Assembly (NCBI GenBank): GCA_965237525.1 | Contig: CBDEFO010000008.1 | Location: forward strand, 64,001 to 128,000 | Source of the DNA: Candidatus Latescibacterota bacterium | GTDB taxonomy: Bacteria; Latescibacterota; CBDEFO01 | Reading direction: 5' to 3' | Length of the DNA stretch: 64,000 bases | In this document: positions 12,866 to 60,521 of the stretch, in pieces | How the letters are laid out: each line of letters opens with the position of its first letter | Numbering within the stretch: position 1 is the stretch's first letter | The notes under the pieces: model-generated | What the model saw: only the letters and a program-made list of their open reading frames with translations | Database searches by the model: none | What the model was told of the DNA's origin: nothing | Translations under genes and position numbers: made by a program

Positions 12866-12940
12866 GTAGGGGCAATCCCCGATTGACTCTATCGGGGGTC
12901 GGGGACTACTCGCCTCAAGGGCAGGGAACCGTGCCCCTAC
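12866..12940. repeat. GTAG-type REP-like palindrome hosting a 19-bp element
   Basis: GTAGGGGCA...TGCCCCTAC inverted arms downstream of the acetamidase stop. Confidence 0.7.
12878..12896. repeat. 19-bp palindromic element, copy 1 (with extra GGTCGGG tail to 12903)
   Basis: TC|CCCGATTGACTCTATCGGG GGTCGGG|GA. Confidence 0.9.
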
Positions 12941-12992
12941 GATAGCTTATTGAGGAAATTGGAATGATTGAAGAATAAACCCTCCCGATAGC

Positions 12993-13467
12993 ATGCGATT
13001 TAGCAGAACAATAAAGCTTAATAAGAATCTGTCCCAAGCGTCAGATCTTGTGCGCAGATATTTTACAGAAGAAGGATACAGCCTCAAACAAGAGTCGGAA
13101 GGAAGCTATATCTTCGAGCGCGGGAAAAGATGGGTGTCACTATACACCTTCAGAATAGAGAAGTGTCACACTCTCCTGAACGCTGAGCTTGAAGAGATAG
13201 ACACCAATTCTACAAAATGCACTCTTTCGTATAAGGTACAGTCCCCGATTGAATCTATCGGGGATCGGACAGATTATCTTGAAGCTCGACAGGGAATTCT
13301 GGGAATATGAATTGAATAACTTGATCTCTTTTGTGGAAGGCGGCAAAAGAGCTGAGGAGAAACATGAGTTCAATCAATACAGAAGGCGGAGGGTCGTCGG
13401 ATGGATATTGAAGTACGGCACCATTCCCGGTGTAGTGATAGGCATAATCAGTGTCAAAGGCTGCTGA
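12993..13467 (+). pseudogene. Hypothetical membrane-anchored protein gene frameshifted by a 19-bp insertion
   Basis: ORFs 12993..13310 and 13249..13467 join in frame (SYKVQSIGQIILKLDREFWEYEL) when 13244..13262 is removed. Confidence 0.8.
13244..13262. repeat. 19-bp palindromic element, copy 2
   Basis: TC|CCCGATTGAATCTATCGGG|GA. Confidence 0.95.
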
Positions 13468-13518
13468 AGGCAAAAAGGAGATAATGTATAGCAGAATATC
13501 AGGTGCAAACAAAAACAC

Positions 13519-13547
13519 TTGCGTTGTACCATCAACCTTATTATATT
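13519..13547 (+). promoter_or_regulatory. Putative sigma70 promoter of tRNA-Glu
   Basis: TTGCGT-17 bp-TATATT upstream of the tRNA. Confidence 0.55.
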
Positions 13548-13556
13548 TTTCTGGTC

Positions 13557-13594
13557 CCCGATTGACCCCCCGATTGAATCTACTGGGGGTCGGG
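13557..13594. repeat. 19-bp palindromic element, nested copies 3 and 4
   Basis: TC|CCCGATTGACCC[CCCGATTGAATCTACTGGG]GGTCGGG|GA; inner copy 13569..13587. Confidence 0.9.
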
Positions 13595-13605
13595 GAGACG
13601 ATAAC

Positions 13606-13681
13606 GGCGCATTCGTCCAGTGGCCCAGGACGCTGGCCTCTCACGCCAGAAACAGGGGTTCGACTCCCCTATGCGCCACCA
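13606..13681 (+). tRNA. tRNA-Glu (anticodon CTC)
   Basis: 76 nt. Acceptor stem GGCGCAT/ATGCGCC, anticodon arm CTGGC-CTCTCAC-GCCAG, T arm AGGGG-TTCGACT-CCCCT, encoded CCA. Confidence 0.97.
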
Positions 13682-13694
13682 ATTTAGAGTCTTC

Positions 13695-13742
13695 AAAAGG
13701 TCGTAAGCGTGTCCCTCAAAGCACCTGCACTTACGACCTTTT
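13695..13742. terminator. Bidirectional terminator-like inverted repeat
   Basis: AAAAGGTCGTAAG...CTTACGACCTTTT between the convergent tRNA and CDS. Confidence 0.7.
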
Positions 13743-13743
13743 C

Positions 13744-14820
13744 CTATATCTTCTTGATATTCTTCTTATTCAATACGATCCAGCTTTGGTCTATCTCAAC
13801 GCCCGCTACGATGTAGCCGAAAGCGGTGTGGTCAAGGGCCTGTTGTATCTGGCTTTTCAGTTCGTCCTCTGTCACGTCCCAACCCTGAATCACTGAGATG
13901 AGCCTCTGATCCCTGTCGTAGAGTCTGTATCTATCCAGGATGGCGCCGACCCAGGCGGCTTGGCATCCGTAGGCGGGGTCGTCCCTGTCGAAGACTTTAT
14001 AGAGGGAGAGTATCCCGACCGCCTTCAGAGGACTTAGAGTCTTTATAAGCGTGGGATATGTCTCCAATCCGTCGGGATGAGAACAGAGCATTCTTCCGTA
14101 TCCCAACGTAGTTTCAGGATCTTTGACGCCTCCGACTTCAAGGCCCGCTTCGCACTCTTCAGTAATGATCGGGACTACGTTAAACCTGGGGAAAAGAGAT
14201 TCTACGGCTTCTACAAACCTTAAGACAGCTATGGGGTTCTTTCCAAAGTAATCGGGCCAATCCCCTGACAACTTCTCACCTTCCGAGTTATCCCACATCC
14301 TGCACAGGGCGTTCCCGCAGCCGCAGCCTTCGGGAGCGGACTGGACATCGTTGAGAAAGATGCCGAGGGCACGCTCCGGTCCTGCTCTTAGGATGAGGGA
14401 TTTTACCCTATCCTTTTCGTAGTCGAAGACACCCTTGTTGTTGATGGAGACCCAGGGGTAGATGGACACAGAAGAGCCGCCGTAGAACCCAGTCTTATGC
14501 GGACGGTGCATCCATTTTCGGTTTTTGGCTACGGCAGACCTGTCTCTTCCAACCTCGATCCAGTAGTACAGACCGAAGCCGCTTGTGATTATGCTGTCCT
14601 TGACACTAGAAATATCGGCGTCTTTTTTGATCCTGGATATGTCAAGGACTACCGAATTGTATCCCTCGTCTCTTAATTTCTCAAGGAGACTTTGATCTAT
14701 CTTGTCAGGAGATGTGAGGTATCCCCTGAGGGTTTCTTCTCCTTCAGTATATGCATTTATAGCTGTAAACAGGACTAAAAGGGAAATAATTAAGATTATG
14801 CTCGTTGGGCGCATTTTCAT
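13744..14820 (-). CDS. Hypothetical exported protein
   Basis: 358 aa ORF with signal-peptide-like N-terminus, GGAGG RBS, Cys cluster GCGCGNALCR. Confidence 0.8.
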   Translation of the reverse strand: MKMRPTSIILIISLLVLFTAINAYTEGEETLRGYLTSPDKIDQSLLEKLRDEGYNSVVLDISRIKKDADISSVKDSIITSGFGLYYWIEVGRDRSAVAKNRKWMHRPHKTGFYGGSSVSIYPWVSINNKGVFDYEKDRVKSLILRAGPERALGIFLNDVQSAPEGCGCGNALCRMWDNSEGEKLSGDWPDYFGKNPIAVLRFVEAVESLFPRFNVVPIITEECEAGLEVGGVKDPETTLGYGRMLCSHPDGLETYPTLIKTLSPLKAVGILSLYKVFDRDDPAYGCQAAWVGAILDRYRLYDRDQRLISVIQGWDVTEDELKSQIQQALDHTAFGYIVAGVEIDQSWIVLNKKNIKKI

Positions 14821-14936
14821 CCTCCGTTATAGAGTTATCTAATACTGAACAGACTATCTTTCCTCTCTTGTTTAATATAAATATGAAGTGACTATTAACG
14901 ACTGGCTACGAGGCTTCCGACTATGAATCTCGACTC

Positions 14937-16076
14937 CTATTCAAAACCGTATACTTTCACATGATTACCATTGCGATAGAATAACTCAGGCACCGCATCA
15001 CCTATTAGATTGCCGAGCAGAAGATAATTCTTCATAGTTGGATTACGTGCAAAATCCTCAGGCATCGAGATATAACGATCAAAGACGAATGTCCCATTTT
15101 CCCACTCAAAGCACCAGACTCCACTTCCAAGGGGTTCATCATCCTTGTAATATCTATAACCACTTGCTACCAATTCAATTCGTCCATCTCGGTCAACATC
15201 TCCCGCACCGTGTAAACGACCAGCCCCGGCATGTAAGAATCGCTCAAAGTGCCAGGACGTATCTCGGACAAGGTAATAGAAACTGGCAGAGTCACCATAG
15301 GGGCCAGAAATAACGATCTCATCGGCTTTATCGTTATTGAAGTCCGCTGTCACGACTGTAGGATGAAAAGAGAGGAATGCAAAGTCAACCTCCGCAATCT
15401 TGATAAACTGCTCCTCGTGACGAAACAAGACAAATTTATAGCGTTCGCCAATGGTACCGGGTGTGATCTTAACAGATGAAATGAAGCCGATCAGAAACAA
15501 CGTCCCGGAAGGATCCTGTAAAATATTTACAGTTCGGATGGGAAGTCCTGTGTTTCCCGGAGAAAAGTAGGTGTATCTTGTTCCGCTGCCAAAGTTGCAG
15601 GACGTCAGATCTCGCCCTTGCCCAGTCCAAATACCCAATTTATGACACGCAAAGTCATAGACATCTCTCAGTTCGCATTTCTCATACGTGGTGACTTGAC
15701 GGAACGTGTCACCGTCCCAGGTATAGCCAGCCGGATGTCCATCGAATCCCATCAAGTGAGTTTGTTGCCCGCCATCTACGTAGACAATATCATCCTTTTG
15801 ATCGTGGTTTATATTTCCCAGTTTAACGAGCCTATTGTTCGCATATTTTGATGGAAGAGGACGCTCAGAAATAAGATTGAAATCAAGTTCGCCCTCCCAG
15901 AGAAGCTTTACAGGCACGGGTTCATTTGCACCGCTCCCGGGTGTCACGTTCAGAAACAAACTTAAGACTGACAGAACTTTAATCAGTTGATAGCGGATTT
16001 TTCTCAAAATGTAGACTCCCTTTTTTCTTCTCAATATTCTCGTCCCCACCGATTTGTTCGACCCATCTGCCTCCAT
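14937..16076 (-). CDS. FG-GAP/VCBS repeat-containing exported protein (start uncertain)
   Basis: ADFNNDKADEIV, GDVDRDGRIELV and GNINHDQKDDIV repeats. Confidence 0.75.
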   Translation of the reverse strand: MEADGSNKSVGTRILRRKKGVYILRKIRYQLIKVLSVLSLFLNVTPGSGANEPVPVKLLWEGELDFNLISERPLPSKYANNRLVKLGNINHDQKDDIVYVDGGQQTHLMGFDGHPAGYTWDGDTFRQVTTYEKCELRDVYDFACHKLGIWTGQGRDLTSCNFGSGTRYTYFSPGNTGLPIRTVNILQDPSGTLFLIGFISSVKITPGTIGERYKFVLFRHEEQFIKIAEVDFAFLSFHPTVVTADFNNDKADEIVISGPYGDSASFYYLVRDTSWHFERFLHAGAGRLHGAGDVDRDGRIELVASGYRYYKDDEPLGSGVWCFEWENGTFVFDRYISMPEDFARNPTMKNYLLLGNLIGDAVPELFYRNGNHVKVYGFE

Positions 16077-16480
16077 CCGATATAGGACTGGATAGCGTAA
16101 CTCTCAAAGTTAGGTAACTTTATCTGCAAGCATCCAGTACTCGGACTTATCATGAGTCTGTACTTCGTTTTTTGATAGCTGAGCAGATTTTATCCTTTCT
16201 ATTTCCTTCTTTAGGGACAATGTCTTCCTTCCCGTTGACCCGACAGCGTTTCAGGAAAGCTTCCATAACGTCACATCAAAAACGTTTACAGGCATCTCGT
16301 GGCCGATCCAGTGCTGCGGCCTATAGATCACAGTGTAGCCGTTGCGGTGGCCGAAGTACGGTTGCGGGCGTCGTCGGGTAGCGTTGACTCGTAATGCTTG
16401 CTTGGCTCTTATCCTGGACTTTCCACTTAATCTTTAAACTCACCAACCTGTTATCGACGAAAAGCAAGCTGATACATCAT

Positions 16481-17596
16481 TTAGCCAATCTGAGTCAATA
16501 CCTCTTTACATCGTTCGGCCACAATCCGTTCCTGCCCAGGCCGGAGTGTGTGAGGGTTTATCACAATGCTGTCCTGAGTAAAGTGTTGACCAACGACAAT
16601 ACTCGGTTCGCCCTCTTGTAACGCCTCTGCTATCATCTCTAGGGTGAGGCCAGCGTCTGCCTCCGGGCGGATGTAGAGCATCGGCACCCTATACGTCTCC
16701 CCTTTGGTGAAACGGCCTACCTCTACATGCGGGACACCCTTCAACGCTTCTTCGATATAGTCCCTTTGAGCCGCCCAGCGAACGCTATCGGCCTCGTGAT
16801 CTCGCGCCAGATACAGTTCCAGGGCCTTCAGAAATCCGATGATCTCCTCCCTGCTCACCTTCATAGGGCGACCGACTGTGGCGAATGGGTTGCCGTTGGC
16901 AGCGCACGCTGCAATGAGGTCTTTGCGACCGATGATCATCCCGGTGGATTGCGGTCCCATGATGCTCTTACCACCACTGAAGATAACAAGATCGACACCT
17001 GCCCGCCAGAAACGCGTCAGGGTGGAGACCGGAGGACACTCCGAGGCTGTATCCACAATTACCGGCACGGATGCAGCCCCGGCCATGGCCACGACCTGAT
17101 CCAACGGCACTGAGGTTGGATGGTCCATGACGTTGGCCATGTAGAAGATGGCCGCTGTGTTCTCATTGATGGCATGGTACATCGCCTCAGTTGGTGGTGT
17201 CCCTTGATCATCAATCTCAATCAGAGTCGCCCCAGCCAGACGAATCGCCTGATCATAAGCAATTCGGTGCGCCTTCTGGATGATGACTTCATGCTTCATA
17301 CCGGTCGTATCAGGCAATTGTTCAATCTTAACCGGGTCGTTCCCGGCCATACAGGCAGCGGTGGTCAACACCAAACCACAGGCCGCGCCCGCCGTCACAT
17401 ACGCGGCCTCTACCTCAAGCATGGCGGAGATCTTTTGGCCGACCCTCTCGTGCAACTCGTCCAAAAAACAGAACTCTTGGGATGCTTGGCGCATACTCTC
17501 CAATACTTCGGGAGCCATAAGGGAACCGCCGTACCGGGTGACAGTCCCAGCTGCATTGATTAGCGTGCGCACGCCTAATTCCTCATAAATGCTCAT
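16481..17596 (-). CDS. SelA-like PLP-dependent enzyme (DgaE-like)
   Basis: INAAGTVTRYGGS, FSGGK PLP lysine motif, GRPMKVSREEI. Confidence 0.85.
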   Translation of the reverse strand: MSIYEELGVRTLINAAGTVTRYGGSLMAPEVLESMRQASQEFCFLDELHERVGQKISAMLEVEAAYVTAGAACGLVLTTAACMAGNDPVKIEQLPDTTGMKHEVIIQKAHRIAYDQAIRLAGATLIEIDDQGTPPTEAMYHAINENTAAIFYMANVMDHPTSVPLDQVVAMAGAASVPVIVDTASECPPVSTLTRFWRAGVDLVIFSGGKSIMGPQSTGMIIGRKDLIAACAANGNPFATVGRPMKVSREEIIGFLKALELYLARDHEADSVRWAAQRDYIEEALKGVPHVEVGRFTKGETYRVPMLYIRPEADAGLTLEMIAEALQEGEPSIVVGQHFTQDSIVINPHTLRPGQERIVAERCKEVLTQIG

Positions 17597-17818
17597 AGCT
17601 GGGTCTTCCTCCTCCCTGGGCGTGATTCTTGAGAATGCCAGGGGATGCGAGAATCACAGTGAGGTATTAGTACAGCCTACTATATGGAGTTTGACAAGCA
17701 TAACGACCAAGCTGGCTGGCGGCGATGGAGTGCCAGCCGAATCCCCGTCCACTCCAGCGCCTTGTCAGGATGGATTAGTAACAATCCTTTGTACTGCCCC
17801 CCAGGAAAGCGACACCAA

Positions 17819-18702
17819 TTAAGCGACCTGGGGTAGTAGATAAAATTGTTTTCTCCACTCTTCCGGGGTCTTATATCCCAGGGATGAATGAAGCCTGTTC
17901 TTGTTGTAATTATCGATCCACTGAGATATGATCTTCTCAGCCTGTTCAAAGGATTCAAACTTGTGAAGCCAAACACACTCTTGCTTGAGGGTCCTGAAAA
18001 AACGCTCTACAACACCGTTCCAATCGGGATTACCACTTGGTATGTATTCCTGACGAATTCCCCAATATTCGGTACTTGCCAAATAGGTCCGAGACAAAAA
18101 GATGGAGCCGTTGTCAGAGCGAAAAGTGAGACCCTGGGGGACAGCCTCCTTGGAAGTGTATCGAGAGATCACGGCCCGATCCAGGGCATCTGTGGCCTCC
18201 AGTGCCCTCCCTTTTCGACTAAAACGATACCCGGGAACCTCCCGACTCCCGTTGTCCACCACCGCAATAAGAGGACACCAACCGTCTTCCCCACAATAGA
18301 CCTTGGTCAAGTCAGCCGACCAGAGACTGTCAGGACGATCCATCACAGAACGCTTCTGGGCAACCTGTGGCCCCTTTCTCCCGGGGTCCCCGATTGATTC
18401 TATCGGGGATTCCACAGCTTACACTGCCACCCCTTAAGCTTCATTATCCTATGAACCTTCTTGATGCTGACACATTCCCCTTCCTTGAAACGAAGATGCG
18501 CCCAAACCCGCCTGTGACCAAATGCCTCTTCTTGGTCGAGTATCCCTCGAACACGAAAAGCAAGCTGTTCATCTATCACAGACTCTTCGACAGAAGAACT
18601 GACACCTCTATACCTAAGCCTATACAGAGTCGAACGATGCAAACCCAAAGCCAAAGCTACCACCTTACGGGAATAGCCTCGACCCAAAAACCGCCCACTC
18701 AA
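17819..18702 (-). pseudogene. IS3 orfB transposase interrupted by a 19-bp element
   Basis: FGHRRVWAHLR, WSADLT, SDNGS, NGVVERFFRTLKQE. The element at 18389..18407 supplies a stop. Confidence 0.85.
18389..18407. repeat. 19-bp palindromic element, copy 5
   Basis: TC|CCCGATTGATTCTATCGGG|GA. Confidence 0.95.
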
Positions 18703-19009
18703 GGCAACCGCTTCGTTTTTTTAGACGGGCTACCTCCTCGAGTATCTCCAACTGGAGGGTTAACTGCCCTACCTTACGCTCCAACCGGCTGACCTCCCAC
18801 TCCTTCGGATCCTTGCGACCACGCCGAGACTTCAGACTCTCCTGCCCTCCTTCCAGGAAACTATCACGCCAGGCATACGCCTGTGACTGGCTAATTCCAT
18901 TCTTCCGACACACCTCTGATACATTCGCTCCTTTCAAAACAGCCAACACCACCTCTACCTTACGGGTCGCCGTCCAGCGCTTACCATCTTTCACTTCGGG
19001 GCTTGACAA
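18665..19009 (-). CDS. IS3 orfA, HTH protein
   Basis: KVEVVLAVLKG-NVSEVCRKNGISQSQAYAWR followed by a coiled coil. TTG start after GGAGG. Confidence 0.85.
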   Translation of the reverse strand: MSSPEVKDGKRWTATRKVEVVLAVLKGANVSEVCRKNGISQSQAYAWRDSFLEGGQESLKSRRGRKDPKEWEVSRLERKVGQLTLQLEILEEVARLKKRSGCLEWAVFGSRLFP

Positions 19010-19292
19010 TTTGACCTCCCTTCTCAAACCCCAATTTGCGAAATATTTGTCGCTCTGTCAAGGGGAGCGGTATGTTACGATCGGAGCCCCACCAATTTCA
19101 ACTAAAAATAGGACTTGACCTATGAGATCATGCGTGAGAGTTATCAGGATAACAGGCAAAGGTGGGATGAGGTCCTCAACATGGAAGAGGTGATCCTACA
19201 CATCTACAAAAAATTCTGACATACTTGCATCGATTTCAGAATTGTGCTACATCATGATACCTAAATCGGCAAACGTGGAACCTCTACATATA

Positions 19293-20147: not shown

Positions 20148-20373
20148 GGCGATTCTCCTCTCTTTCTGTCTTGCTCCTTTTGGCCGCCTTATCTTTGAGC
20201 CTTTTCAGCTCGTCCTCTATATCTATCTTCTCAAACTCCTTCTTCAGGGCGTAATCCTCCCACGATTCGTCAAAAGATCCTACTTCCCAATCGGGGATGT
20301 CTCGACCGCATATCTCAGATGCAGCGATTCCTGCTACCCCTCCGAGATATATTCCGGATATAAAGCGCAGCAT
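20116..20373 (-). CDS. Small hypothetical protein
   Basis: AGGAGG RBS, hydrophobic N-terminus, charged tail, operon position. Confidence 0.6.
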   Translation of the reverse strand: MLRFISGIYLGGVAGIAASEICGRDIPDWEVGSFDESWEDYALKKEFEKIDIEDELKRLKDKAAKRSKTEREENRLDSKQSKREY

Positions 20374-20386
20374 TCTAATCCCTCCT

Positions 20387-22885: not shown

Positions 22886-22890
22886 CTTAT

Positions 22891-23534
22891 TTAATCGACA
22901 TTTCCTTTACGAGCGAATTTCTGAAGAAAGTCCTTCACCTGATTGAAAGCCTCATTATCCCACGACAAGTATCCCGCCTGGGCTGCTTCACTAACTGTTT
23001 TCCTGCCTCTGGTTTTGAAGCTAAAAAGACCTGTACTCTGGCCTTAGATTCGTTTTTGGGCAAAGAGAGATCTTTCTGTTTCAAACATTCAAAGTATTGT
23101 TCTACACAGACCATGGCAGGGTTCTGCTCTTCGGATTCGATACAGACGTCTTCTAACATCCCAGGTTCGTCCTGTGCAGGCAAAATCATGACGGTGACCT
23201 GAGGACTATGGCCGGTGGGTATCAAAGAGTGTTCGGGCGCAGGTAAATCCACAGATCGCAAGGCGTCACAAACGCTTTGAAAAGCACCACCGGGATTATC
23301 ATTTGCGTCTCTGACCACACCCAGGGAAGCGACTATATCAAAATTTGGAGATGAGATAAGAGCATTCAAATTCCTTCGCAATTGATCTTTACCTCCGATG
23401 GGCAAAACTTGAACTTCCATCAATCCCAAATGATCTATCAGTGCTCCGAAGAACTGTTTATCCTCTTTGCCCTCGACTGCCAGCACATTCGGTTGTTCTA
23501 TGGTGATTGGTTTCTCTGTCTTGATCGGCATCAC
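22891..23534 (-). pseudogene. DUF3226-type (TOPRIM-like) protein with a 1-nt frameshift near 22990
   Basis: VEGKED, VRDAND, GMLED. Adding one G gives KQLGEAAQAGYLSWDNEAFNQVKDFLQKF...* ending at 22891. Confidence 0.7.
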
Positions 23535-24616
23535 CTGACCTCCAGGCCAGTCTCAATAGCCGCTGTCAAGGCTTCCTGGTCATAGGTTACAGCGCGGATG
23601 TCGCCATCTTTGCGTTCCAAGCGATGCAATCGAAAGTCGTACGGCTTGCTCTCTGTGAACGCCTCCTGAGCAGCCACGATGCATTCCCAACTGTGAGTGG
23701 TAGCAAAAACCTGAGTGTTAAACTGTCGGGCCGTTTCTCCAATAGCTTCCCATATCTTGGTCATAGCCGAATGGTAAAATCCGTTCTCTATTTCATCTAT
23801 AAGCACAACACCGTCTGGGGCATTGCCAATAGCCATCACCAAGCTTGCCAGACGAACCATGCCACCTCCCATGAAGGGCAGGGGTATAAGGCGCCCGTTG
23901 CCAACATCCCCATGCAACATCGATTCCCCTGCCGCGGCCACTGCTGTGATGCGTTCGAGCCGCGGTTCAATGAGTTTCAATATCTGTAATATCATGTCCT
24001 GTTTACCCTCTTTCTCCAACTTCCCAAAACGCTCAGCCTCTTCCGACACGGGGATATGCATTCGGGCAGGCAAGAAGAATGTTGGGAGCGCAGAGACGGG
24101 AGGAATGGGCACAGTGCGCATGCCGCTTTCATCAAGAATCAAGTAATAGTTGCCACATTCTCCTTTCTGTTTGTATTCGAGCTTAAGCACCTCGGCAATT
24201 CCAGATGAGATAAGAACTCCCTTAGAGTTCTCAGGACTATACTGGATGGCTTGCGGTATTTTCTTTAACTCTGACCGATCACGAACTGCCCTTAGTTGGA
24301 GGGATCTACGACCGGTTATTGTGTCTTTGCCCACCAACTCTATGTTCTCTGAGCTGTCAAATTTAGTAAAGAGAAAATCCCAGGGGAGTTCTTCACGCCA
24401 CTGTCCAAGCTGTGCCTTCATTGCCTCAACGCCGCGAAAGGCTCTGATTTTGAAGACAAGTGCGGGTATCCACGCACCACAGTGTAGAAACATTGCTTCT
24501 AAGAGGGACGTCTTACCAACATTGTTGACTCCAGCGATCAGATTGATTCGTTCGAGAGAAGGAATCGTCAACTTGCGCAAGCACCCAAAGTTCTTAACTT
24601 CAAATGATTTGTACAT
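23531..24616 (-). CDS. ABC-type AAA ATPase (AAA_15/AAA_21-like)
   Basis: GVNNVGKT, MGGG signature, LIDEIENGFYH, TTHS. Confidence 0.9.
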   Translation of the reverse strand: MYKSFEVKNFGCLRKLTIPSLERINLIAGVNNVGKTSLLEAMFLHCGAWIPALVFKIRAFRGVEAMKAQLGQWREELPWDFLFTKFDSSENIELVGKDTITGRRSLQLRAVRDRSELKKIPQAIQYSPENSKGVLISSGIAEVLKLEYKQKGECGNYYLILDESGMRTVPIPPVSALPTFFLPARMHIPVSEEAERFGKLEKEGKQDMILQILKLIEPRLERITAVAAAGESMLHGDVGNGRLIPLPFMGGGMVRLASLVMAIGNAPDGVVLIDEIENGFYHSAMTKIWEAIGETARQFNTQVFATTHSWECIVAAQEAFTESKPYDFRLHRLERKDGDIRAVTYDQEALTAAIETGLEVR

Positions 24617-26710: not shown

Positions 26711-26797
26711 GTAAATGTCCTTTCTTTGGAAGGCTAAGGCAAAGGCTGAGGCTAAGACCTCACTGTCTTCCCCTCCGCTCTCTCCTTGGCTTTCATT

Positions 26798-34972: not shown

Positions 34973-34999
34973 GACCTCCGCAGATTGATGCCCGTGTTC

Positions 35000-35018
35000 A
35001 CCGATAGAATCAATCGGG
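35000..35018. repeat. 19-bp palindromic element, copy 6
   Basis: TC|ACCGATAGAATCAATCGGG|GA (1 mismatch). Confidence 0.9.
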
Positions 35019-35050
35019 GATTGAGGAGGAAAACAGGTTTTCCTTCGATT

Positions 35051-35380: not shown

Positions 35381-35385
35381 TACCC

Positions 35386-41488: not shown

Positions 41489-43009
41489 AAAGCCTTGTGA
41501 AAAACCCTTAGATTCAGAAAGTAGTATAGAACAAGCATTGATAAAGCAGCTCCGATGTATTATATTATGTTATTGATAATATTATACATGGAGGAAACAA
41601 TGACCCCACAAAAGCAGGAACAGACAAATCCGATGTTTCACTATTTTCAGATGGAGGATTTAGTTCCCGAGGATCATATCCTTCGTCAGATTGATGAGGC
41701 AGTTGATTTTTCATTTGTACGAGACGTTGTATCAGATTGTTATTGCCCTGACAATGGCAGACCCGGTATTGATCCTGAATTAGTTGTTCGAATGATCCTT
41801 ATTGGCTATCTGTATAATTTGAGTGAGAATCGGCTCTGTCAGGAAGTGGGGATGCATGCGGCATATCGGTTGTTTTGTCATCAGACATTTGATGATGCGG
41901 TTCTGGATAGGAGCACGATCAACAAGCTTCGCAATCACAAGTGGGCATCCAGTGGGTTGTTTGAACGGATAATGCGTCAGGTAGTCCAGTGTTGCATAGA
42001 TGTCGGTCTTGTGAGCGGTAAACACCTTAGTGTCGACGGCACTCAGATACAAGCTGATGCTTCAGTGAAAAGTATTGAGCCGATAGAACCCCCTGTTTCT
42101 CTTGATGATTATCTCAAGGGAATCGGTTTTGAAGGTGATAAGACAAAGGGTAGGTCCGGGCATCCTCAGGATAAAGACTTTCATGGTGAAAAGTGGACGA
42201 ACCAAACACACCGTTCGACTACAGACCCCGACGCGCGCTTATACAGCAAATCGAAGGGCAAAGGGGCTTTTCTCTCGTTTATGGGCCATGATCTGATCGA
42301 CACAAAAAGCAGAGTAACCCTTGAGACTCAGGGCACGCAGGCGACAGGGACAGCAGAGCCCGAAAGTGCCCTTAAGATGGTAGATGACCTTGAAACATAC
42401 ACCATGCCCAAAGACATTCAGACACTTAGTGCCGATACCGGTTACGGTTCTGGTAATTTTATCGCTGATGTACTTGACCGGGGAATCATACCCCATATTC
42501 CTCTGCGAGCCGATGAGAAGATTGAACCGATTCCTACATGGAAAAACAAGACAAATTCAGCACATATTCAGGCCGAACGGGATAGAAAAGTGTGAGAGGC
42601 GAAAGCCAGAAATCATGCACGGTCTATCTCATTAACAGCTGACTACAAACTCTCCCGGAGACTCCGTAAACGCAGTGAACATATCTTTGCTGAAGCCAGG
42701 CAACAACACGGTATGGGACGAGCCCGTTATAGAGGACCAGCCTCACTGAATGAACAGTTGAATCTTGTTGCAACAGTACAGAATCTCAAGAGGCTTGTAT
42801 CTTTCATAAGAAGGGGGAAAGCGTCTATGTGTGCCCTGCCTGTCAAAGACAGTGCATCCTGTTCTTCAAACAGCTCCTGTTCCTTGCTGACCAGAACTCT
42901 GATAAGACTATTTTGCTTATTCCACAGCAAAACGATACGATATGCTACTCTTTGACCCATAATCGGCGCTTCAGACGCTGCCTGGGACATAACTATTTCA
43001 CAAGGCTTC
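41489..43009 (+). mobile_element. IS1182-family insertion sequence, copy 1
   Basis: IRs AAGCCTTGTGAAA / TTTCACAAGGCTT; TA (or TAA) target duplication; DUF772 + DDE transposase. Confidence 0.92.
41600..42955 (+). pseudogene. IS1182 transposase with a nonsense mutation (TGA at 42593-42595)
   Basis: EDLVPEDHILR, GRPGIDP, VDGT, ADTGY. Copy 2 has CGA at this codon. Confidence 0.9.
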
Positions 43010-49492: not shown

Positions 49493-49679
49493 TTTTGCAT
49501 CTCCTTTTGGTTGTCTTTATGAAGCTGGCCCCAGCAGGGCAGTTTTGAGGTACTACATAATGTGTAATGACACCTAAGTGGTTTGTAAGTTCCCAAAATT
49601 GGTCTGTCTACTGTCTGTAGAGATTCAGTAAGGGCTTTCCCCAAGTGTGGTGGGTCAGGCATTTCCCCTCGATTCAATC

Positions 49680-49698
49680 CCCGATTGAATCTATCGGG
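49680..49698. repeat. 19-bp palindromic element, copy 7
   Basis: TC|CCCGATTGAATCTATCGGG|GA. Confidence 0.95.
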
Positions 49699-49774
49699 GA
49701 GGGCTGACGAAGTAATCTCAACTGTCTACTGTACAGACAAGAATGTCTGTTATACTGTCTGTCTTGAGTCAGTT

Positions 49775-50761: not shown

Positions 50762-50847
50762 AGCTGTCGCATATGAGAAGTAGGGGCTAACATATGAGTG
50801 GTGAGTCAGACATTCATGCCCGAGACGCCCGATCTATCCCTATTTCC

Positions 50848-50874
50848 AGGTCAGGCCCGCGGGTCTGACCCTAC
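50848..50874. repeat. GTAG-type REP-like palindrome
   Basis: GGTCAGGCCCGCGGGTCTGACCCTAC (GTAG on the minus strand). Confidence 0.65.
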
Positions 50875-50905
50875 TGCTTTTCCCCCTCTACCGCCGATCC
50901 CCACC

Positions 50906-50924
50906 CCCGATTGAATCTATCGGG
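50906..50924. repeat. 19-bp palindromic element, copy 8
   Basis: CC|CCCGATTGAATCTATCGGG|GG. Confidence 0.95.
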
Positions 50925-51924
50925 GGTTACTGGCTACTTGTTTGAGGTTGTCCACTTCCTCTATTTTCCAACACGCCGCGCTGTGGTTTTCTCCGATCTT
51001 AAAGAGCGGTGGTTCTTCCACTTTGCACCTTTCGTCTGCCAAACTGCATCTGGGGTTAAACCTGCATCCGGACGGGAAGTCAGCCGCGTCAGGCACGCTG
51101 CCGGGGATAACTAAAAGCCGTTCTTTCTCCTCGCCAAGTTTGGGGATGGATTCCAAAAGTCCTATGGTGTAAGGGTGCTTTGGATCGTTGAATACTCCTT
51201 CGACATCTGTGTATTCGACGATCTTTCCGGCGTACATGACGGCGACTCTGTCTGCAACTTCCGCTATTACTCCAAGGTCGTGCGTGATTATCAATATAGC
51301 CATGTGGAATTCTGCTTGAAGTCGTTCAAGGAGTTCTAATATCTGGGCTTGAATCGTCACGTCCAAGGCTGTTGTGGGTTCGTCCGCGATCAGAAGTCCG
51401 GGGTTGCAGGAGAGCGCCATGGCTATCATGATCCTCTGTCTCATTCCTCCCGAAAGTTGATGGGGATATTCGTCCACTCTCTGTTGGGGGGCAGAAATAC
51501 CCACCATTTTTAACATTTCTATGCTCTTTTCCCTGGCTCCTTTCTTACTGAGCCCCTGATGGAGGATGATGGCCTCTGCTATCTGGTTTCCGCAGGTGAA
51601 AACAGGATTAAGAGATGTCATGGGTTCTTGAAATATCATCGAGATGTCGTTCCCTCTGACTTTTCTCATTTCGGATTCGCTGATCCCCAGTAAGTCTCTG
51701 TCTTTGAAGATGACCTCACCTCCCTCAATTCTTCCAGGGGGATCGGGAATGAGCCTCATTATGGAAAGAGATGTCACGCTCTTCCCGCAGCCCGACTCTC
51801 CAACTAAGCCTAGAGTCTCTCCCTTTGCTATTTCGAAGCTGACTCCATCCACGGCTTTAGCCACTCCGTCATCCGTATGGAAGTAGGTCTTTAAATCTTT
51901 TAACTGTAAGAGTGAGTCATTCAT
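50917..51924 (-). CDS. Oligopeptide/dipeptide ABC transporter ATPase (OppD/DppD-like)
   Basis: [27 protein letters not shown]; start MNDSLL; stop lies inside the 19-bp element. Confidence 0.95.
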
Positions 51925-51929
51925 TGCAT

Positions 51930-53030: not shown

Positions 53031-53150
53031 CTTCCTATGTATTAGTGTTAATCAGATGACACATGTCAGACACAACTGGAAAACTCTATTCCCCTGATCA
53101 CCAGACAACCGAGTCTTGTCTCTTTTGCTCGGAGTCTTACAGAGCTATCT

Positions 53151-53918: not shown

Positions 53919-54000
53919 CGGAGTTCCCCTCTTTTTATCACTCCCCCTTGATTCTTTCAGGGGCCTGCCACTATCTCCTTGCCGTCGAAACCGATCGATC

Positions 54001-54019
54001 GCCGATAGATTCATTCGGG
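54001..54019. repeat. 19-bp palindromic element, copy 9
   Basis: TC|GCCGATAGATTCATTCGGG|GA (2 mismatches). Confidence 0.85.
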
Positions 54020-54395
54020 GACCAGATGCTCCATGACCCAATCAAGTAATCTGCCACGAAGATGCCGGAATGAGATGATATCTTAATTATAATATCCGTG
54101 TCAACAGAGTAAGAGAACGCTACTTGAGAAATCCATCGGATGTGAAGTTCTATTTCGGAACTAGAAGGCCCGCTGTCCATATCGGAGCCGTATTCTCATT
54201 CTTAAAATATAGAAGAAACATGCTAATGTAAAGGGATTTTTGTTCACACCAGGCATATCCCAGATATATTCAATCGGAGAGAGCAACACAAGACGCTTGA
54301 TTTTAGGATATTAAGAAGTATATTAGGTATAGCCTCGAAAGACGAATCGGGGATCACGGTGACAGTCTCACTTATTAACGGCACTTTCAATTATA

Positions 54396-55931
54396 ATGCA
54401 CAGACCCACTGCAGACATATCCGAAAAGGGCGTATCCCTTACCTTTCTGGCTACCACGTTGATGATTATCGCTGTCTGCGGGATAACTTACGAACTTATC
54501 ATCGGTACTGCTTCATCCTATCTTCTGGGCAACAGCGTCCTGCAGTTTTCCATAACTATCGGCCTTTTTATGACATCTTTTGGGATCGGCTCTTTTTTAT
54601 CCACAAAGATCAGGACGAAGCTTTTGGAAAAGTTTGTCTCTATTGAGATCGCTATCGGAGCAATTGGGGGAATATCCGTCATCGCCCTGTTTTCCACTTA
54701 CGCTTACACCAGCGTCTATAGACCAGTCATGTACCTGTTCATCCTCTCTATCGGCACCATGATTGGACTTGAGATTCCGCTCCTCATAAGGCTAGCAGAC
54801 GAGTATAACTCTAACCTGAGGGTAACGTTGGGAAATATGCTCGGATTTGACTACATCGGCGCCTTGTTGGGTTCGGTCGCTTTTCCCCTTATTCTGCTTC
54901 CCCATTTAGGACTCATTAAGACGTCAATCCTAATCGGCATCGCCAACGTGGGGGTCGCTCTTGCCTGTGCGTTCAAATACAAAAGGCAGATGTCAAAGGT
55001 GCGCCTTTTAAGCCTCTTGTGCGTGTTGTCCACTATTCTGCTTACAGCCGCTTACCTCTGGTCAGAGCCAGTAGAGAACTACATAGAACAGCGGCTCTAT
55101 AGATACCCTATTATCTTAAGGAAGCAGAGTCCGTATCAAAGGATCGTTTTGACGAAGGCCAAAAAGGACGTGCGGCTCTTTCTGGACGGAAATATACAGT
55201 TCTCCTCCACAGACGAATATCGGTATCACGAAGCTTTAGTCCATCCGGGAATGTCTCTTTCTCTATCCAGAAAGAACATTCTCATACTCGGCGGCGGAGA
55301 CGGTCTGGCGCTAAGGGAGATCCTAAAATATCCAGATGTGGAGAGCGTGACGCTCGTGGACATAGACAAGGACGTAGTGGAAATCTGCCGGACGCATCGG
55401 CTGATTTCGGACCTAAATGAGGGAGTCCTGGAAGATCGTAGAGTCCGCATAGTCCAGCAGGATGCATATCAGTTCTTGAGGACTACTCCAGACCTCTATG
55501 GCTTCATCGCCGTAGACCTACCTGACCCGAACAACGAGTCTGTCAACAAGCTTTACAGCAGGCACTTTTACTTCATGCTCAGAGAGCACATAGAAGAAGG
55601 AGGCTTCGCCTCGCTCCAGAGCACGTCCCCTTTCTTTGCAAGAGAGGCCTTCTGGTGTATAAACAAGACGATAGAATCTTGTGGATTGATCGTTCGCCCT
55701 TACCACTTGAACGTGCCGTCTTTCGGAGACTGGGGATTCAACCTTGCCTCCAGGACGGACTTTAATATAGACGATATACGAATCACTGTACCTACCAAAT
55801 TTCTGAATACGGAAACGGTCTTTTCCATGTTCGGATTCGGCAAGGATATAGACTCCGTGGAGACAGAGCTTAACACTCTCATCAAGCCTGCGCTTTTGTC
55901 GTATTACGAGAAGGCATGGAGACACTGGTAG
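54396..55931 (+). CDS. speE: Membrane-domain-fused polyamine aminopropyltransferase (spermidine synthase)
   Basis: N-terminal TM domain, QSPYQRI, DEYRYHEALVH, LGGGDG, DLPDP, PSFGDWGF. Confidence 0.92.
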   Translation: MHRPTADISEKGVSLTFLATTLMIIAVCGITYELIIGTASSYLLGNSVLQFSITIGLFMTSFGIGSFLSTKIRTKLLEKFVSIEIAIGAIGGISVIALFSTYAYTSVYRPVMYLFILSIGTMIGLEIPLLIRLADEYNSNLRVTLGNMLGFDYIGALLGSVAFPLILLPHLGLIKTSILIGIANVGVALACAFKYKRQMSKVRLLSLLCVLSTILLTAAYLWSEPVENYIEQRLYRYPIILRKQSPYQRIVLTKAKKDVRLFLDGNIQFSSTDEYRYHEALVHPGMSLSLSRKNILILGGGDGLALREILKYPDVESVTLVDIDKDVVEICRTHRLISDLNEGVLEDRRVRIVQQDAYQFLRTTPDLYGFIAVDLPDPNNESVNKLYSRHFYFMLREHIEEGGFASLQSTSPFFAREAFWCINKTIESCGLIVRPYHLNVPSFGDWGFNLASRTDFNIDDIRITVPTKFLNTETVFSMFGFGKDIDSVETELNTLIKPALLSYYEKAWRHW

Positions 55932-55996
55932 CTCACCCTCTTACCTATTCTTTCTTCACGGTCAGCACTGTCAATGCGGCGACGCCAAGCAACCCT

Positions 55997-56015
55997 CCCG
56001 ATAGAATCAATCGGG
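55997..56015. repeat. 19-bp palindromic element, copy 10
   Basis: CT|CCCGATAGAATCAATCGGG|GC (perfect core, non-canonical flanks). Confidence 0.92.
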
Positions 56016-56064
56016 GCTTTCTGTCACCGAAGAAACCATATATGTGACCGCTTCGGTACGAACC

Positions 56065-56083
56065 CCCGATAGAATCATTCGGG
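56065..56083. repeat. 19-bp palindromic element, copy 11
   Basis: CC|CCCGATAGAATCATTCGGG|GG (1 mismatch). Confidence 0.9.
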
Positions 56084-56243
56084 GGCAGGCCCCCATGGAA
56101 TGATTAAGACAGATTATGTGAGAAAGTTTCTCAGACACCTGGAAAACGCTTCGCACATCTGGCTCAGTGCAGGGAGTGAAGGCTCTGCGACCAGCTATGC
56201 CAAAACTTTTTCACAGAACGTTAAGGGAATATTCAAGAAGTTT

Positions 56244-58980
56244 CTATAGCGACTCACCCCGGCTGATTACTGTCACAAAGGCTCGCGGATTGATGTCCCC
56301 TCGAACGTCACAGGTGAACCTCACCAGGTTCTCTCCGGCTTCGACGACAGGCGCGACCCCTTCTGGAACTACCTCACGGATCAGTTCACCCTGGGGACCG
56401 TAAAGCTTGCAGTCTGGAATCGAATGGAACTCCAGGTAGCATCCGCTCTCAATATCTGTGGGGAAGAGAATCCTTCTGTCGCCCACAGTGACTGCGGGAT
56501 TGCTGAGTGTGGCATTGACCAGCGGCAGGGCCTTGATGGGACTTAGGTAGCAAGTTGCCGCATCGTTCGGAGGCAGGTTGTTATACCACAGGCAAAGGGC
56601 TGCCACCTGGTCGTATTGCACGCGTTCGCGGTAGATAGCATAGGCGTCGCCATATGGCCACGCGTAATCGGCGTAGCGGCCTCCCTCGGTCTCGATCAGC
56701 TCAAAATAGCGCCACCCTGTGAAGTCGACGATAACGTAGTGCTCGCCGATGCCCGCAACTACATGTTCGGGGCTTCTTATCTGGAAGTTCAGGACTTCTC
56801 CTTTGCCGTCGCCATACACCCAGACTCCGAGGCCCTCAAGCTCGCTGAGGTCAATCGGGGGCGAGAACCTCTTGCCGACCTTCGTCCACGCGCCCTTCCG
56901 GCTTGACCGACTGCTCGACGCCGTCAGGAAACCGCTGCTCGTTCCGGCTTGCACAATGTCCTTCGACATCCGCAGGTCTACCTGAATATCAGACTCGGCT
57001 TCCCGATCGTCGAAATCCGCGACATCCTCGAAATCGGCCAGCGTCACATTTCCCGCTGCATCGTAGGGGCCGGCGGCCATCAACGCTTCGATGCGCAGAC
57101 CAACGGGCTGACGTTCGAATCTATTATAGGTCTTCCAAGCGTTGCTCCACATGTCCATACACTCCACTTTGTGCTTGGCGTACTGAACGCGCTGGAACTG
57201 GTATTCTCCGCGTGGACTCCGGATCAGCGTAAACTCCTCACCCCGTGCCCTCAGTTTGGCCTTAACTGATTCTGGAAAATAGTTCGAGAGGCGCAGTGTT
57301 TCATAATCTTTTATGATGTTGGCCAGCCTGGATAACGCCGGAATCTCATGGGCATTGTCGGGATCTATGCCCATCAAAGATAAGCTGGCGTCAGTCCCGA
57401 GACACTTGCAGCACAAATACTCGATGTCATCCGGGAATGTCGGCTCGCCCTGAGCCCCGGACCAGGTCTTAACGGCCCACCACCCCAGGTTCACCGGCAG
57501 GTACATACGCTGGTAGCTCTCGTTCGTCTTGCAGTGGATATCTATAAACTTCTTGTGACTGCGCCTCGGATGATCCCAGGCCCCCATGCGGGAGCGGACG
57601 AACCAGAGGTGATGGTGGAACGTGCTCATCTCCACAAGCGCCGGCTTCTTCAGTCGCTTCCACAGCTCAAAGACGAACTTCGAACCGTAGTGCCAGCCGT
57701 TTTCCTCGCCTCCCAAGACGTCCTCGCCGTCCAGAGCATCCAGGTATAACATGTCGAAGCCGCATTCGTTGAAGGCTTCCGCAGTCTTGGCCGCCACTTC
57801 CGCAAGGAGCGTGGAATCAGCATCGGACACGAACAGCCCGTAGCACTCCTTGAGATGGTGTACCTCATCCCTTTGACGTGGGGTTCGACGCGAGTCCGTA
57901 GGCGCCTCTTTGGCAGCCGGTGAAAGCGTACGGCGGATCCCTGGTGACACCGGTATACGTAATGAGCTCGTTATCGACCTGCAGCGTTACGCTGTTGCGC
58001 ACGACAAAGCCCGTGATTGTGGACGTATCCACTGTTGACTCGACTACAGGCACCGCGACATCCTTTGGCGTCAACGGCTCGGCCAGAGTGAATGTCGCAT
58101 CCATCCCCAGACGCGGGTCAGGAACAGGGGTCACCCATGGGCAACTCTTGTCGATCAAGAATGAATAGGTGTGCAGGCCCGCTGCGATGTCCGCGGCGTG
58201 GAGCCTGTCAATCACGGCCTTCAGGCTGACCAACCCTTGCGGGTACATCTCTGGATCGGGCAGGCAGTCTCCAAATCGGAAGGAGCGTCCTCCGTGGAAA
58301 TCAAGCTGTTTGAACCCCAGGCTCTGGACCAAGCCGATCCAGTCGTCTACTGTCTCCTCGGTAACGTCGCCAAGATTGAAAAGATACGAGCCTTTGTTTA
58401 TAGGAGCATCTAACGCCCACGGCCCGCCGATGGCCGAGTGAGGCAGCTCTTCAGCGGCACTTACCGCCTCCTGCAACACCCTGCGAAGTTCGCTCTGCGG
58501 ACAACCGATCAGGGCCACCTTGGCACCGGGAAATGCGAATCTTGGATAGCACGCTGCTCGGAGATGGCTGTTCGGTCCCGGCAATTCAGGGACTTTCGTC
58601 TGGATATTCAGGGCAAGTGCACAGGCGGCGAAGGATTCTTCCGACACTCCTCCAAGCGTGAGTCGGATGTCGGCGAACACCAGCTCCTCCACATGCTCGT
58701 CTCCCACGGACACAACTTCCAGGATGAAGTAGCGGTCATGGGCGACAACTCTTATGACACCGGTCACCCCTGATTCTCCAAACTGCACTTCTATTTGCCC
58801 ATCGGTGTAGGAGACCGATGAAGCATCGTAGTACCCGCCTGTTTTCTTCACGCGGGCAAACGAGGATCTGGGGTTCTGGACGCAATAGTCTATCCCCGTT
58901 GACTTGTCCACAAAATGGAGATTCCTGCCATCGCTCTGAATGACGTACTTGGCGTAACTATTTTCAATGTCAATGGTCAT
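56244..58980 (-). pseudogene. Large hypothetical (possibly glycoside-hydrolase-like) protein gene split by frameshifts near 57870-57895
   Basis: ORFs 57865..58980 and 56244..57950 join as CQRGAYGTRVEPHVKGDEVHHLKEC if two G residues are restored. Barrel-like motifs AAGLHTY and FDMLYLDALDG. Confidence 0.7.
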
Positions 58981-59081
58981 TGGGGCCTCCTATGCAGATG
59001 AGTTCAACATGCTTTCTAATGAACAGTGTTCTATGATCAACTGTGCGGCGGGAATAAGAAGTGAAAAAGAGGCCTGCCCTC

Positions 59082-59100
59082 CCCGATAGAAGCAAACGGG
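59082..59100. repeat. 19-bp palindromic element, copy 12
   Basis: TC|CCCGATAGAAGCAAACGGG|GA (2 mismatches). Confidence 0.8.
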
Positions 59101-59243
59101 GATCATTCTTTCGGGGGTCTGTAGGATGGGTCAAGGGAATAATCGGCTCGCCGAAGCTATATCCAGCGCGCACGATCAGAGGGCTGTCAAAACCTGTGTC
59201 AGTCGTAGTCAGCCAAGGAATCGGTTGCCTTTCAAAATCAATC

Positions 59244-59262
59244 CTCGATAGATTCAATCGGA
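59244..59262. repeat. 19-bp palindromic element, copy 13
   Basis: TC|CTCGATAGATTCAATCGGA|GA (2 mismatches). Confidence 0.82.
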
Positions 59263-59621
59263 GATCAATGTCCATATCCGCGTCTGCAGCAGGAGGTGCC
59301 AGCCGCATAACTGCATCCGCGCCAGCTTCCCAAGCGGCCTGGAACGCAGCACACTTTGAGGCGTGGAGATACGCCAACAGCCAAAGACAAAGGGCGCTCT
59401 GCCGTTAGTAGCTTCGACCACAGGTTCCAGATTCCTGATGCGCGCTGATACTCCTAAAGAATAGAGTTCACCTGTAGGTAACATTTGTGTCCACATAACG
59501 ATGATAGTGCCAGATAATATGGCAACAGATCTCTCCCTGCAACGCCTTACGGCGCGGCCCGGCCACTTTCTTCGCACTTCGTCCCTCTGTTAGAAACGCT
59601 GCGGCAACGCGCACAGTGCCC

Positions 59622-60425
59622 TCACCAGGCAGTCCACCCTCCATCGACCAAAAGATTCTGGCCCGTGATATAGCTTCCGGCATCACTGGCCATCAACAGT
59701 AGAGCGCCTTTCAGTTCCTCCGGTTGTCCGATACGTCCCAGTGGCACCTTCTCTTCCAGCCGAGGGACGAAACCAGGGAACTTTGCACACGTTTCCGGCT
59801 TTGGAAACGGACCTGGGCTGATGGCGTTGACACGGATATTATACTTTGCCCAGTAAGCCGCCAGATGACGGGTCAAATGGATCAGACCGCCCTTGAGGGC
59901 ATGGTAACTGGCTGGACTGTTGACTGATAATCCTTCATAGGCGGTGGGATAACTTGCCACGACGCCGTACATACTTGCGATATTGATAATTGAACCTGAG
60001 GCCTGCCGTTTTCGCAGATGGAACATCACTTCTCGCGCCAGCAGGAAATAGGCGGTGACACCTATATGATACGTCTGATCAAAATCCTCAGCTGTGGCGG
60101 TATCAATGTCCGGTGCTCTGCCACCGTAGGCGTTGTTGACCAGCACATCGAGCTGGCCCATTCGTTGCACCACCTCGCCTGCGAAATCAGGGATAGTATC
60201 GGTATCGCCTTGACTGAAACCCAAGCCGAGGTGGCCGCTGCCGGGTAGGGTGGCTGCAAACTGAACCGCCTGTTCCGCGTCGCGGCTGCTGACCACTACC
60301 CGGGCGCCAGCCTCGGCCAGGGCTCGGCTCATGGCCGACCCCAGCCATCCACATGCCCCTGTCACTATGGCAACTTTGCCTTGCAAGCTAAAGAGATCCA
60401 GGATATTGCGTTCAGTGCTGTTCAT
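59622..60425 (-). CDS. Short-chain dehydrogenase/reductase
   Basis: TGACGWLG, NNAY, YHALK, VDGGWTAW; GGAGG RBS before MNSTE. Confidence 0.93.
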   Translation of the reverse strand: MNSTERNILDLFSLQGKVAIVTGACGWLGSAMSRALAEAGARVVVSSRDAEQAVQFAATLPGSGHLGLGFSQGDTDTIPDFAGEVVQRMGQLDVLVNNAYGGRAPDIDTATAEDFDQTYHIGVTAYFLLAREVMFHLRKRQASGSIINIASMYGVVASYPTAYEGLSVNSPASYHALKGGLIHLTRHLAAYWAKYNIRVNAISPGPFPKPETCAKFPGFVPRLEEKVPLGRIGQPEELKGALLLMASDAGSYITGQNLLVDGGWTAW

Positions 60426-60502
60426 GATACTCCTCCATCCGTTGGAGAGTGTTCTGCGGCATCTTTCCCCTGATTTAATCGGGGCGAAGGATGTCCTCAA
60501 TT

Positions 60503-60521
60503 CCCGATAGATTCAGTCGGG
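60503..60521. repeat. 19-bp palindromic element, copy 14
   Basis: TT|CCCGATAGATTCAGTCGGG|GA (1 mismatch). Confidence 0.88.

Follow-up and report, generated by a model that had tools for sequence, protein, structure and literature searches.

We analyzed a stretch of 64,000 nucleotides (nt) from a Candidatus Latescibacterota bacterium (contig CBDEFO010000008.1 of assembly GCA_965237525.1, positions 64,001 to 128,000), referred to here as the window, which carries multiple copies of a very small palindrome. Our results show that this palindrome is a mobile element and that its mobile unit is a hairpin of 23 nt, YC-CCCGATWGANTCWATCGGG-GR, and not the 19-bp core that an earlier, sequence-only reading of the window had taken for the unit. 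At many orthologous sites, the element is present in one and absent from the other of two genomes, the host genome (G000) and a relative of the same genus (G001). Its junctions follow a rule: 3 to 4 target bases are lost, or 4 are gained through a duplication or a carried arm, and only rarely is there neither loss nor gain. No cognate transposase or other enzyme was found. The element is real and mobile and is a new variant among very small mobile repeats.

When scored at up to 3 mismatches, here and in the host genome, the consensus matches the window 14 times, against 0.20 matches expected by chance and a maximum of 2 in shuffled sequences (n = 100). Thirteen of the 14 starts in the sequence-only reading stand, with 0 to 2 mismatches each; the start at 13557 is an interrupted outer copy that is no match itself, and a copy at 54260 with 3 mismatches had gone unlisted. 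G000 (4.58 Mb, 8 contigs) harbors 599 copies, with 0, 1, 2, and 3 mismatches in 236, 167, 129, and 67, respectively; this total includes a small number of duplicates, as contig C2 is largely a reverse repeat of the end of contig C4 (C4:540000-556594). The flanks in the window are as had been claimed, and a genome-wide scan finds TC^GA or CC^GG around most copies. This context is mostly made by the element, whose own end pairs overwrite the target.

That YC and GR belong to the hairpin, which gives a unit of 23 nt, follows from the pairing of positions -2 and +2 together with the empty alleles described below. The two positions form a Watson-Crick pair in 220 of the 281 non-nested dereplicated copies (126 ± 8 when permuted), and in copies from other genomes the outer pair is Watson-Crick in 66 of 74, with C/G, A/T, T/A, and G/C all seen and A/T (12/74) as common as T/A. 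Target flanks that would extend the stem show no excess of pairing beyond ±2. The predicted hairpins fold at -7.7 and -8.1 kcal/mol, with a z score near -2.6, and compensated stem variants spread: A/T at positions 3/15 occurs in 25 of 463 copies, compared with 12 and 10 for the single changes, and T/A occurs in 7. For a shorter relative of 19 nt, whose core has 15 nt, the net gain is 15, again with four bases lost. There is also a long form, in which a C[CT]TG arm (CCTG or CTTG) is found on 79 sides, against 11 expected; it is associated with the CCCGAATG core and builds head-to-tail 27-mers. The arm lies on the G-rich strand in 42 cases versus 22, in counts that are not dereplicated and concern a near-palindrome in DNA of weak GC skew.

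Evidence for mobility comes from empty alleles. G001 is a single contig of 4.54 Mb (98% complete), of which 2.8 Mb was compared and 1.95 Mb aligned at 94.5% identity. Among the 214 G000 copies that lie in aligned blocks, 116 are common to both genomes and 98 differ in length or structure. Single copies are among those that differ; sites in unique sequence differ in both directions, and extra copies are more numerous in G000 than in G001 (62 versus 35 events, P = 0.008, the events not being independent). In the window, the copies at 13244, 18389, and 12878 have empty alleles, nine other listed positions are common to both genomes (both parts of a nested pair included), and two have no aligned block. 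At 13244, the empty allele in G001 reads CAG-AC^GA-TC, so that AC has been replaced by TC plus the 19-bp core; the G001 ortholog of this frameshifted gene has an open frame of at least 120 amino acids (aa), in agreement with the claim that removal of 19 bp restores the frame. At 18389, the empty allele, seen in IS3 paralogs and in G001, is CCCGGG-AC^GATT, with a net gain of 20, and at 12878 a nested patch gives a net gain of 27. None of these supports the proposed insertion into the center of TCGA or CCGG. The comparison with a related genome that the sequence-only reading had suggested thus did yield empty alleles, although the length difference was often not 19 bp (55 of 74 junction types).

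These 74 junction types were obtained by searching the whole genome for orthologs and paralogs that lack the element, and their net gains fall into two clusters. Gains of 18 (5 types), 19 (19 types), 20 (17 types), and 21 (4 types) make up 45 of the 74 and reflect lost target bases; gains of 26 (6 types) and 27 (12 types) make up another 18 and reflect a 4-nt duplication or a CCTG/CTTG arm. One type gained 25 and none gained 22 to 24. The remaining 10 outlier types (+14, +17, and +29 to +33) are probably anchor slips and were left uninterpreted, and the +20 types include several variants of one site in a miniature inverted-repeat transposable element (MITE). An independent count of alignment bubbles places 4 of 97 events at +22 to +24. 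Inside open reading frames (ORFs), net gains of 15, 18, 21, 27, and 33 occur, and +24 does not, although it would be in frame. In the +19 types, the overwritten target bases equal the element end in 7, 16, 10, and 13 of 19 cases at positions -2, -1, +1, and +2, respectively. Bases outside the 23-mer are altered at many junctions, as in AATC-GA to TAACC+19+GG and ACC to CAGGTC+19+G; at C2:20557, 35 nt stand in place of 8.

Contrary to the claim that there is no target duplication, 17 of the 281 non-nested dereplicated G000 copies are flanked by a 4-nt direct repeat around the 23-mer (2.1 ± 1.4 in the null), including that at 59244 (TCAA), as are 13 copies in the compared part of G001. All 17 and all 13 fit YNNR. 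An empty allele shows true duplication at four sites (TGAA, TCAA, TCCA, and CAAG); a carried arm or the effect of an array may account for some of the rest, and at least one in G000 (C8:1570332) and three of five in other genomes are located in heptamer arrays. The duplication at 59244 is likely but indirect, because that copy is also present in G001. Three-nucleotide direct repeats are in excess as well (27 versus 7.8 expected), but this excess probably stems from heptamer arrays and was disregarded; 4-nt repeats with one mismatch are not (18 versus 17.1). The 4-mers that are lost and those that are duplicated differ in consensus.

The copies in the window are as follows (no strand is assigned unless one is given).
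12876..12904: nested form within a GTAG-type repetitive extragenic palindromic sequence (REP), made up of a 23-mer and what remains of an outer copy on the right; empty in G001, net +27.
13242..13264: 23-mer in the coding sequence (CDS) 12993-13310; target ACGA replaced, net +19, gene frameshifted; empty and open in G001.
13555..13596: nested pair upstream of tRNA-Glu (13606-13681); the inner 23-mer (13567-13589) replaces TCTA of the outer copy; also in G001.
18387..18409: 23-mer in orfB of an IS3-type element (17789-19075); empty copies of the insertion sequence (IS) read CCCGGG-AC-GATT, net +20.
34998..35020: intergenic 23-mer; common to G001.
49678..49700: 23-mer adjoining a remnant of another copy; common to G001 and sequencing run X4.
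50904..50926: 23-mer of the CC/GG type; the G001 counterpart sits in a CTGTCTA heptamer context.
53999..54021: degenerate 23-mer with 2 mismatches; G001 has no block aligned here.
54258..54280: degenerate copy, 3 mismatches, absent from the first list; common to G001.
55995..56017: copy with unpaired outer bases (CT/GC).
56063..56089, minus strand: long 27-nt form, with a CCTG arm at 56086-56089 (read on the minus strand) plus a 23-mer of the CCCGAATG core variant.
59080..59102: 23-mer; common to G001.
59238..59268: 23-mer (59242-59264) between TCAA 4-nt direct repeats; common to G001.
60467..60485: shorter family member, a 19-nt hairpin with a 15-nt core of the CCCGATTWAATCGGG type.
60501..60523: 23-mer; common to G001.

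Contigs of run X4, from a study distinct from that of the best holder, span seven of these copies without gaps (49680, 50906, 54260, 55997, 59082, 59244, and 60503); the element is therefore not a library adapter, an artefact that the G001 alignment rules out as well. The palindrome at 49680, described earlier as preexisting, looks in the G001 alignment like a remnant of another copy. An Rfam search matched only the tRNA, which starts just downstream of the nested pair, and gave no match to the element.

The element prefers other repeats and itself. Of 466 dereplicated copies, 99 lie in heptamer arrays (of the CTGTCTA type), 51 in CGTC-REPs, 20 in GTAG-REPs, and 132 in the element itself, where the corresponding backgrounds at random sites are 3.4%, 0.3%, 0.3%, and 3.7%. 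The sequence-only reading was right to see a very small, non-autonomous, apparently mobile palindrome in genes, an IS3 element, REP-like repeats, and its own copies, and not an operator. Self-insertion occurs in a single register, with the outer TCTA removed, in 36 of 52 parsed nested copies. In a repeat that contains a CGTC-REP, the element, where present, always occupies the same site; it is there in 38 of the 53 copies in G000 and in 9 of 24 in the compared 2.8 Mb of G001. Among eight orthologous pairs of this repeat, five are filled in G000 and empty in G001 (four loci, given one assembly duplicate), and a locus-specific variant 11 to 12 nt from the junction is retained, which indicates in situ replacement of a short patch. 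By crude ORF calls, 92 copies lie inside ORFs of at least 200 aa, to which they add 5 to 11 aa (for example, PDRFNRG). Replication and transcription strands show no clear bias.

Among 60 relatives of G000, only G001 is rich in it (393 copies at up to 1 mismatch), and one other has a single match. The core is also found in Deltaproteobacteria, PVC-group, and other genomes, five of which hold 113, 58, 35, 13, and 1 copies at up to 2 mismatches, and in at least 114 metagenome stretches; two scans of viral contigs gave no exact match. In one clade of Deltaproteobacteria (the genomes around G061), 13 of 41 are carriers. At five metagenome loci (L221, L225, L244, L245, and L250), the core is the stem of a terminator-like hairpin with an A-tract and a T-tract.

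Of the enzyme types that had been suggested to accompany the motif, HUH/RAYT and reverse transcriptase (RT) yielded no cognate one. G000 has an intact RAYT-like gene at C8:1476118-1476648 (locus to 1476760), which PF01797 (Pfam Y1_Tnp) does not detect; GTAG REPs flank it, one lies in its own frame, and one is invaded by the motif. G000 also has a single Ssn-like GIY-YIG gene (C4:479790-480160) between inverted NTS-type repeats, with no motif copy within 10 kb. G001 has no match to PF01797, to NF047646, or to the G000 Ssn-like protein beyond the N-terminal REP-encoded residues of the latter. None of the 20 RAYT-like loci of the carriers G061, G067, and G071 is flanked by the motif, one copy lying 1.3 kb off. 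RAYT-like genes occur in 21 of the 60 relatives of G000, none of them carriers at up to 1 mismatch. Ssn homologs are not associated with the element in the Deltaproteobacteria clade (5 of 13 carriers versus 9 of 28 non-carriers), and none of the 63 scanned ORFs beside metagenome copies (130 listed) is of the GIY-YIG or Y1 type. No element with these ends, whether a resident IS or something larger, is among the multi-copy elements listed for G000 and the compared part of G001. Capture by nonhomologous end joining was set aside, as Ku had no match in the five carrier genomes tested. In G062, three near-copies of the motif surround a 301-aa RT frame (G062:C23:27577-32035), an arrangement that may be due to chance.

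How does such an element spread? The filled and empty junctions, with some 3 to 4 bases lost or 4 gained, the preference for repeats and for self, and the same patch at orthologous repeats are direct observations. We judge the chances about even that the element spreads as a short patch of single-stranded DNA (ssDNA) through host replication or repair, in a manner similar to SPDIR (short-patch double illegitimate recombination) and with no transposase of its own. The donor would be a short ssDNA hairpin with a few flanking bases, and its release would most probably be the work of an HUH/Y1 enzyme that processes hairpins in trans, or else of ordinary ssDNA turnover that spares hairpins. The hairpin ends would pair with exposed single-stranded target DNA, and replication or repair might then build the patch in, at forks or gaps as in SPDIR. 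For net gains of 19 or 20, the two outermost base pairs of the stem would be open and face the target bases that are overwritten; for a gain of 27, the 4-nt arm would be looped out along with the hairpin. We favor this model because it explains the changed flank bases, the linkage between core and arm, the repeated patches at one site, and self-nesting. The flanks of the best donor match over 8.25 nt, versus 6.0 to 6.9 in three nulls (for the 44 of 79 copies in unique flanks that have a donor of identical core, degenerate repeats remaining in the set). A stronger version, which we consider possible though rather unlikely, is that of a selfish oligonucleotide without genes: a 23-nt hairpin that would persist as ssDNA, enter genomes of several phyla by means of host fork and repair machinery alone, and obey the minus-4/plus-4 rule. 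If true, such elements would form a class of their own, mobile without a transposase and without a reverse transcriptase.

Several results weigh against the ssDNA patch model. Net lengths are bimodal around 23, which is unlike the variable sizes in SPDIR and looks like a fixed enzyme geometry, and perfect 4-nt duplications of differing target 4-mers are hard to obtain by simple annealing. Among the CDS copies free of repeats (n = 38), the donor flank match exceeds the null by only 0.3 to 1.2 nt. The bimodal sizes, the perfect duplications, and this small excess point to an enzyme with a 3- to 4-nt stagger. One MITE site gave +20 with three different cores, so that the outcome depends on the site and not on the donor alone. 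Orientation shows no bias relative to local GC skew, and MutS is present in all five carriers. The number of RAYT-like genes tracks copy number (Spearman 0.77 in the 13 carriers and 0.60 in all 41 genomes of the clade, kin not being independent). Finally, SPDIR is below detection in wild-type Acinetobacter baylyi (10.1101/2023.11.22.568220).

In the enzyme-based alternative, an enzyme acting in trans would make two cuts 3 to 4 nt apart and attach the hairpin to target strands that end in a purine, with polarity or repair setting whether 4 nt are duplicated or 3 to 4 deleted, and the shared patches would be due to later gene conversion among repeats. We regard it as somewhat doubtful but a serious contender. 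The role could fall to a RAYT-type HUH enzyme, to an Ssn-type nuclease, or to a type II topoisomerase of the host, whose cuts have a 4-nt stagger. Besides the bimodal lengths and the YNNR form of every 4-nt repeat, purine at -3 and pyrimidine at +3 are found on 65 of 76 sides even in CDS copies, G000, with its intact RAYT-like gene, has more of the (non-independent) extra copies than G001, which lacks such a gene, and in the Deltaproteobacteria clade RAYT matches occur in 13 of 13 carriers versus 22 of 28 non-carriers, again among kin. Yet carrier RAYT-like loci are not flanked by the motif, the G000 gene having GTAG REPs instead; GTAG precedes just 28 of 926 element sides, these from heptamer arrays; a single-nick peel-and-paste reaction would be expected to give +23, which is rare; the lost and duplicated 4-mers differ in consensus, unlike the products of a single cleavage site; and neither the Ssn homologs nor the ORFs beside metagenome copies show an association. 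Both processes may act together, an enzyme making first insertions and patching accounting for spread.

Three further explanations fare less well. That primary insertions were few and most copies arose by amplification of IS, MITE, and REP sequences plus gene conversion, with no mobility of the element itself, would fit the IS3 and MITE sites, at which a single junction type recurs in 15 and in 38 copies, respectively, and the 191 of 463 dereplicated copies that are nested in or adjacent to another. The 281 non-nested dereplicated loci, the copies in ORFs, the same core in unrelated phyla, and above all the filled/empty pairs at unique sites in both directions, which largely refute it, make this quite improbable. 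An RNA donor copied by an RT at a nick, by target-primed, diversity-generating retroelement-like, or retron-like patching, would explain short patches with ragged ends, and RTs are matched in G001 (two), G062 (one), and G064 (four); with no RT match in G000 or G061, no orientation bias relative to transcription, and no Rfam match, we consider it very improbable. The clean 19-bp insertion into the center of TCGA or CCGG, possibly methylated, that the sequence-only reading had favored is scarcely credible. In its favor, the target center is YCGR in 5 of 19 +19 types (background, 1.6%) and G000 has three C5 methyltransferase genes; still, 14 of the 19 have no such target, G001, G061, G062, and G064 lack a C5 methyltransferase match, leaving one of five carriers with the enzyme, TCGA and CCGG are barely depleted in G000 (0.94 and 0.90 of expected), outer pairs in other genomes include A/T, and the empty alleles at 13244 and 18389 contradict it, as do the many junction types other than +19.

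Among known systems, the small dispersed repeats (SDRs) of Nostoc are said to belong to the 21- to 27-nt size class and reportedly insert into tandem and dispersed repeats. Our 23- and 27-nt dispersed repeats, with filled and empty alleles, resemble SDRs as these have been described. One of them, SDR5, is reported to be inserted precisely inside another repeat, HIP1 (PMC4390886), and insertion into other repeats is likewise a trait of our element. By description, it differs in its occurrence in other phyla, in having no fixed octamer target, and in its ragged -3/-4 or +4 junctions. GTAG REP/REPIN-RAYT systems (PMC8266576, PMC3116915) share with it a short palindrome, hundreds of copies, no enzyme of its own, compensatory stem changes, and a subfamily with a 4-nt arm at the stem foot. 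However, GTAG at the stem foot is not conserved here, no REPtron is built from the element, which parasitizes REPs and is frequent in genes, and a net gain of 23 is rare. Its CCCG...CGGG-GAT stem resembles the dRS3/NTS stem of CGTC REP/NTS-SRM-Ssn systems (PMC11893778, PMC3733652), and G000 has an Ssn-like gene, but CGTC directly precedes the core in only 8 of 588 oriented copies and the ssn gene is neither flanked by the motif nor co-occurring with it. A MITE of a DDE-type IS would be expected to share IS ends and a constant target duplication; here, the ends match no listed resident IS, 4-nt repeats are confined to the 17 copies above, and most junctions lose bases.

SPDIR microindels in A. 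baylyi are short replacement patches with altered bases at both joints and partial end homology, and their products are highly variable in size (10.1101/2023.11.22.568220, 10.1101/2024.07.02.601687). Our junctions, too, look like short replacement patches whose two ends carry changed bases. Extended microhomology with the donor gives a mixed picture, being clear in repeats and a small excess at unique sites. In contrast to a rare process with variable donors and sizes, one donor family has been used hundreds of times here, with bimodal sizes. Rickettsia palindromic elements also insert in frame into genes, but they add 20 to 30 or more aa, compared with 5 to 11 aa here (PMC3733652). No description of the element or of its junction rule was found in the literature searched, from which most subscription journals were excluded, so that absence from print is not demonstrated.

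The spread of repeats shorter than 30 nt has been unexplained since the Nostoc SDRs and REPs, and the G000/G001 pair offers dozens of filled and empty junctions and a rare view of the ways in which mobile DNA of the smallest kind may spread. The quantitative rule is a constraint that any mechanism must reproduce. The element is a source of variation in uncultured bacteria, since it adds short peptides, breaks genes (as at 13244), and reshapes both REPs and terminator-like hairpins.

Other features of the window and the host genome were noted. The IS3-type element at 17789-19075 (rve, HTH_21, and HTH_Tnp_1), whose orfB is interrupted by the 23-mer, has about 50 copies in G001, in filled and empty subfamilies. 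DDE transposase genes lie at 41555-42595 and 62937-63935, and in G000 as a whole one IS reaches about 134 copies and another about 50. The tetranucleotide CTAG is strongly underrepresented in G000 (0.27 of expected). Positions 84-7461 encode a TPR protein, an FG-GAP/UnbV protein, and two tandem DUF6785+DUF6784 genes, with paralogous clusters elsewhere in G001. At 22935-24616, an AAA_15/AAA_21 ATPase gene stands beside a DUF3226 gene, possibly as a defense or toxin-antitoxin pair.

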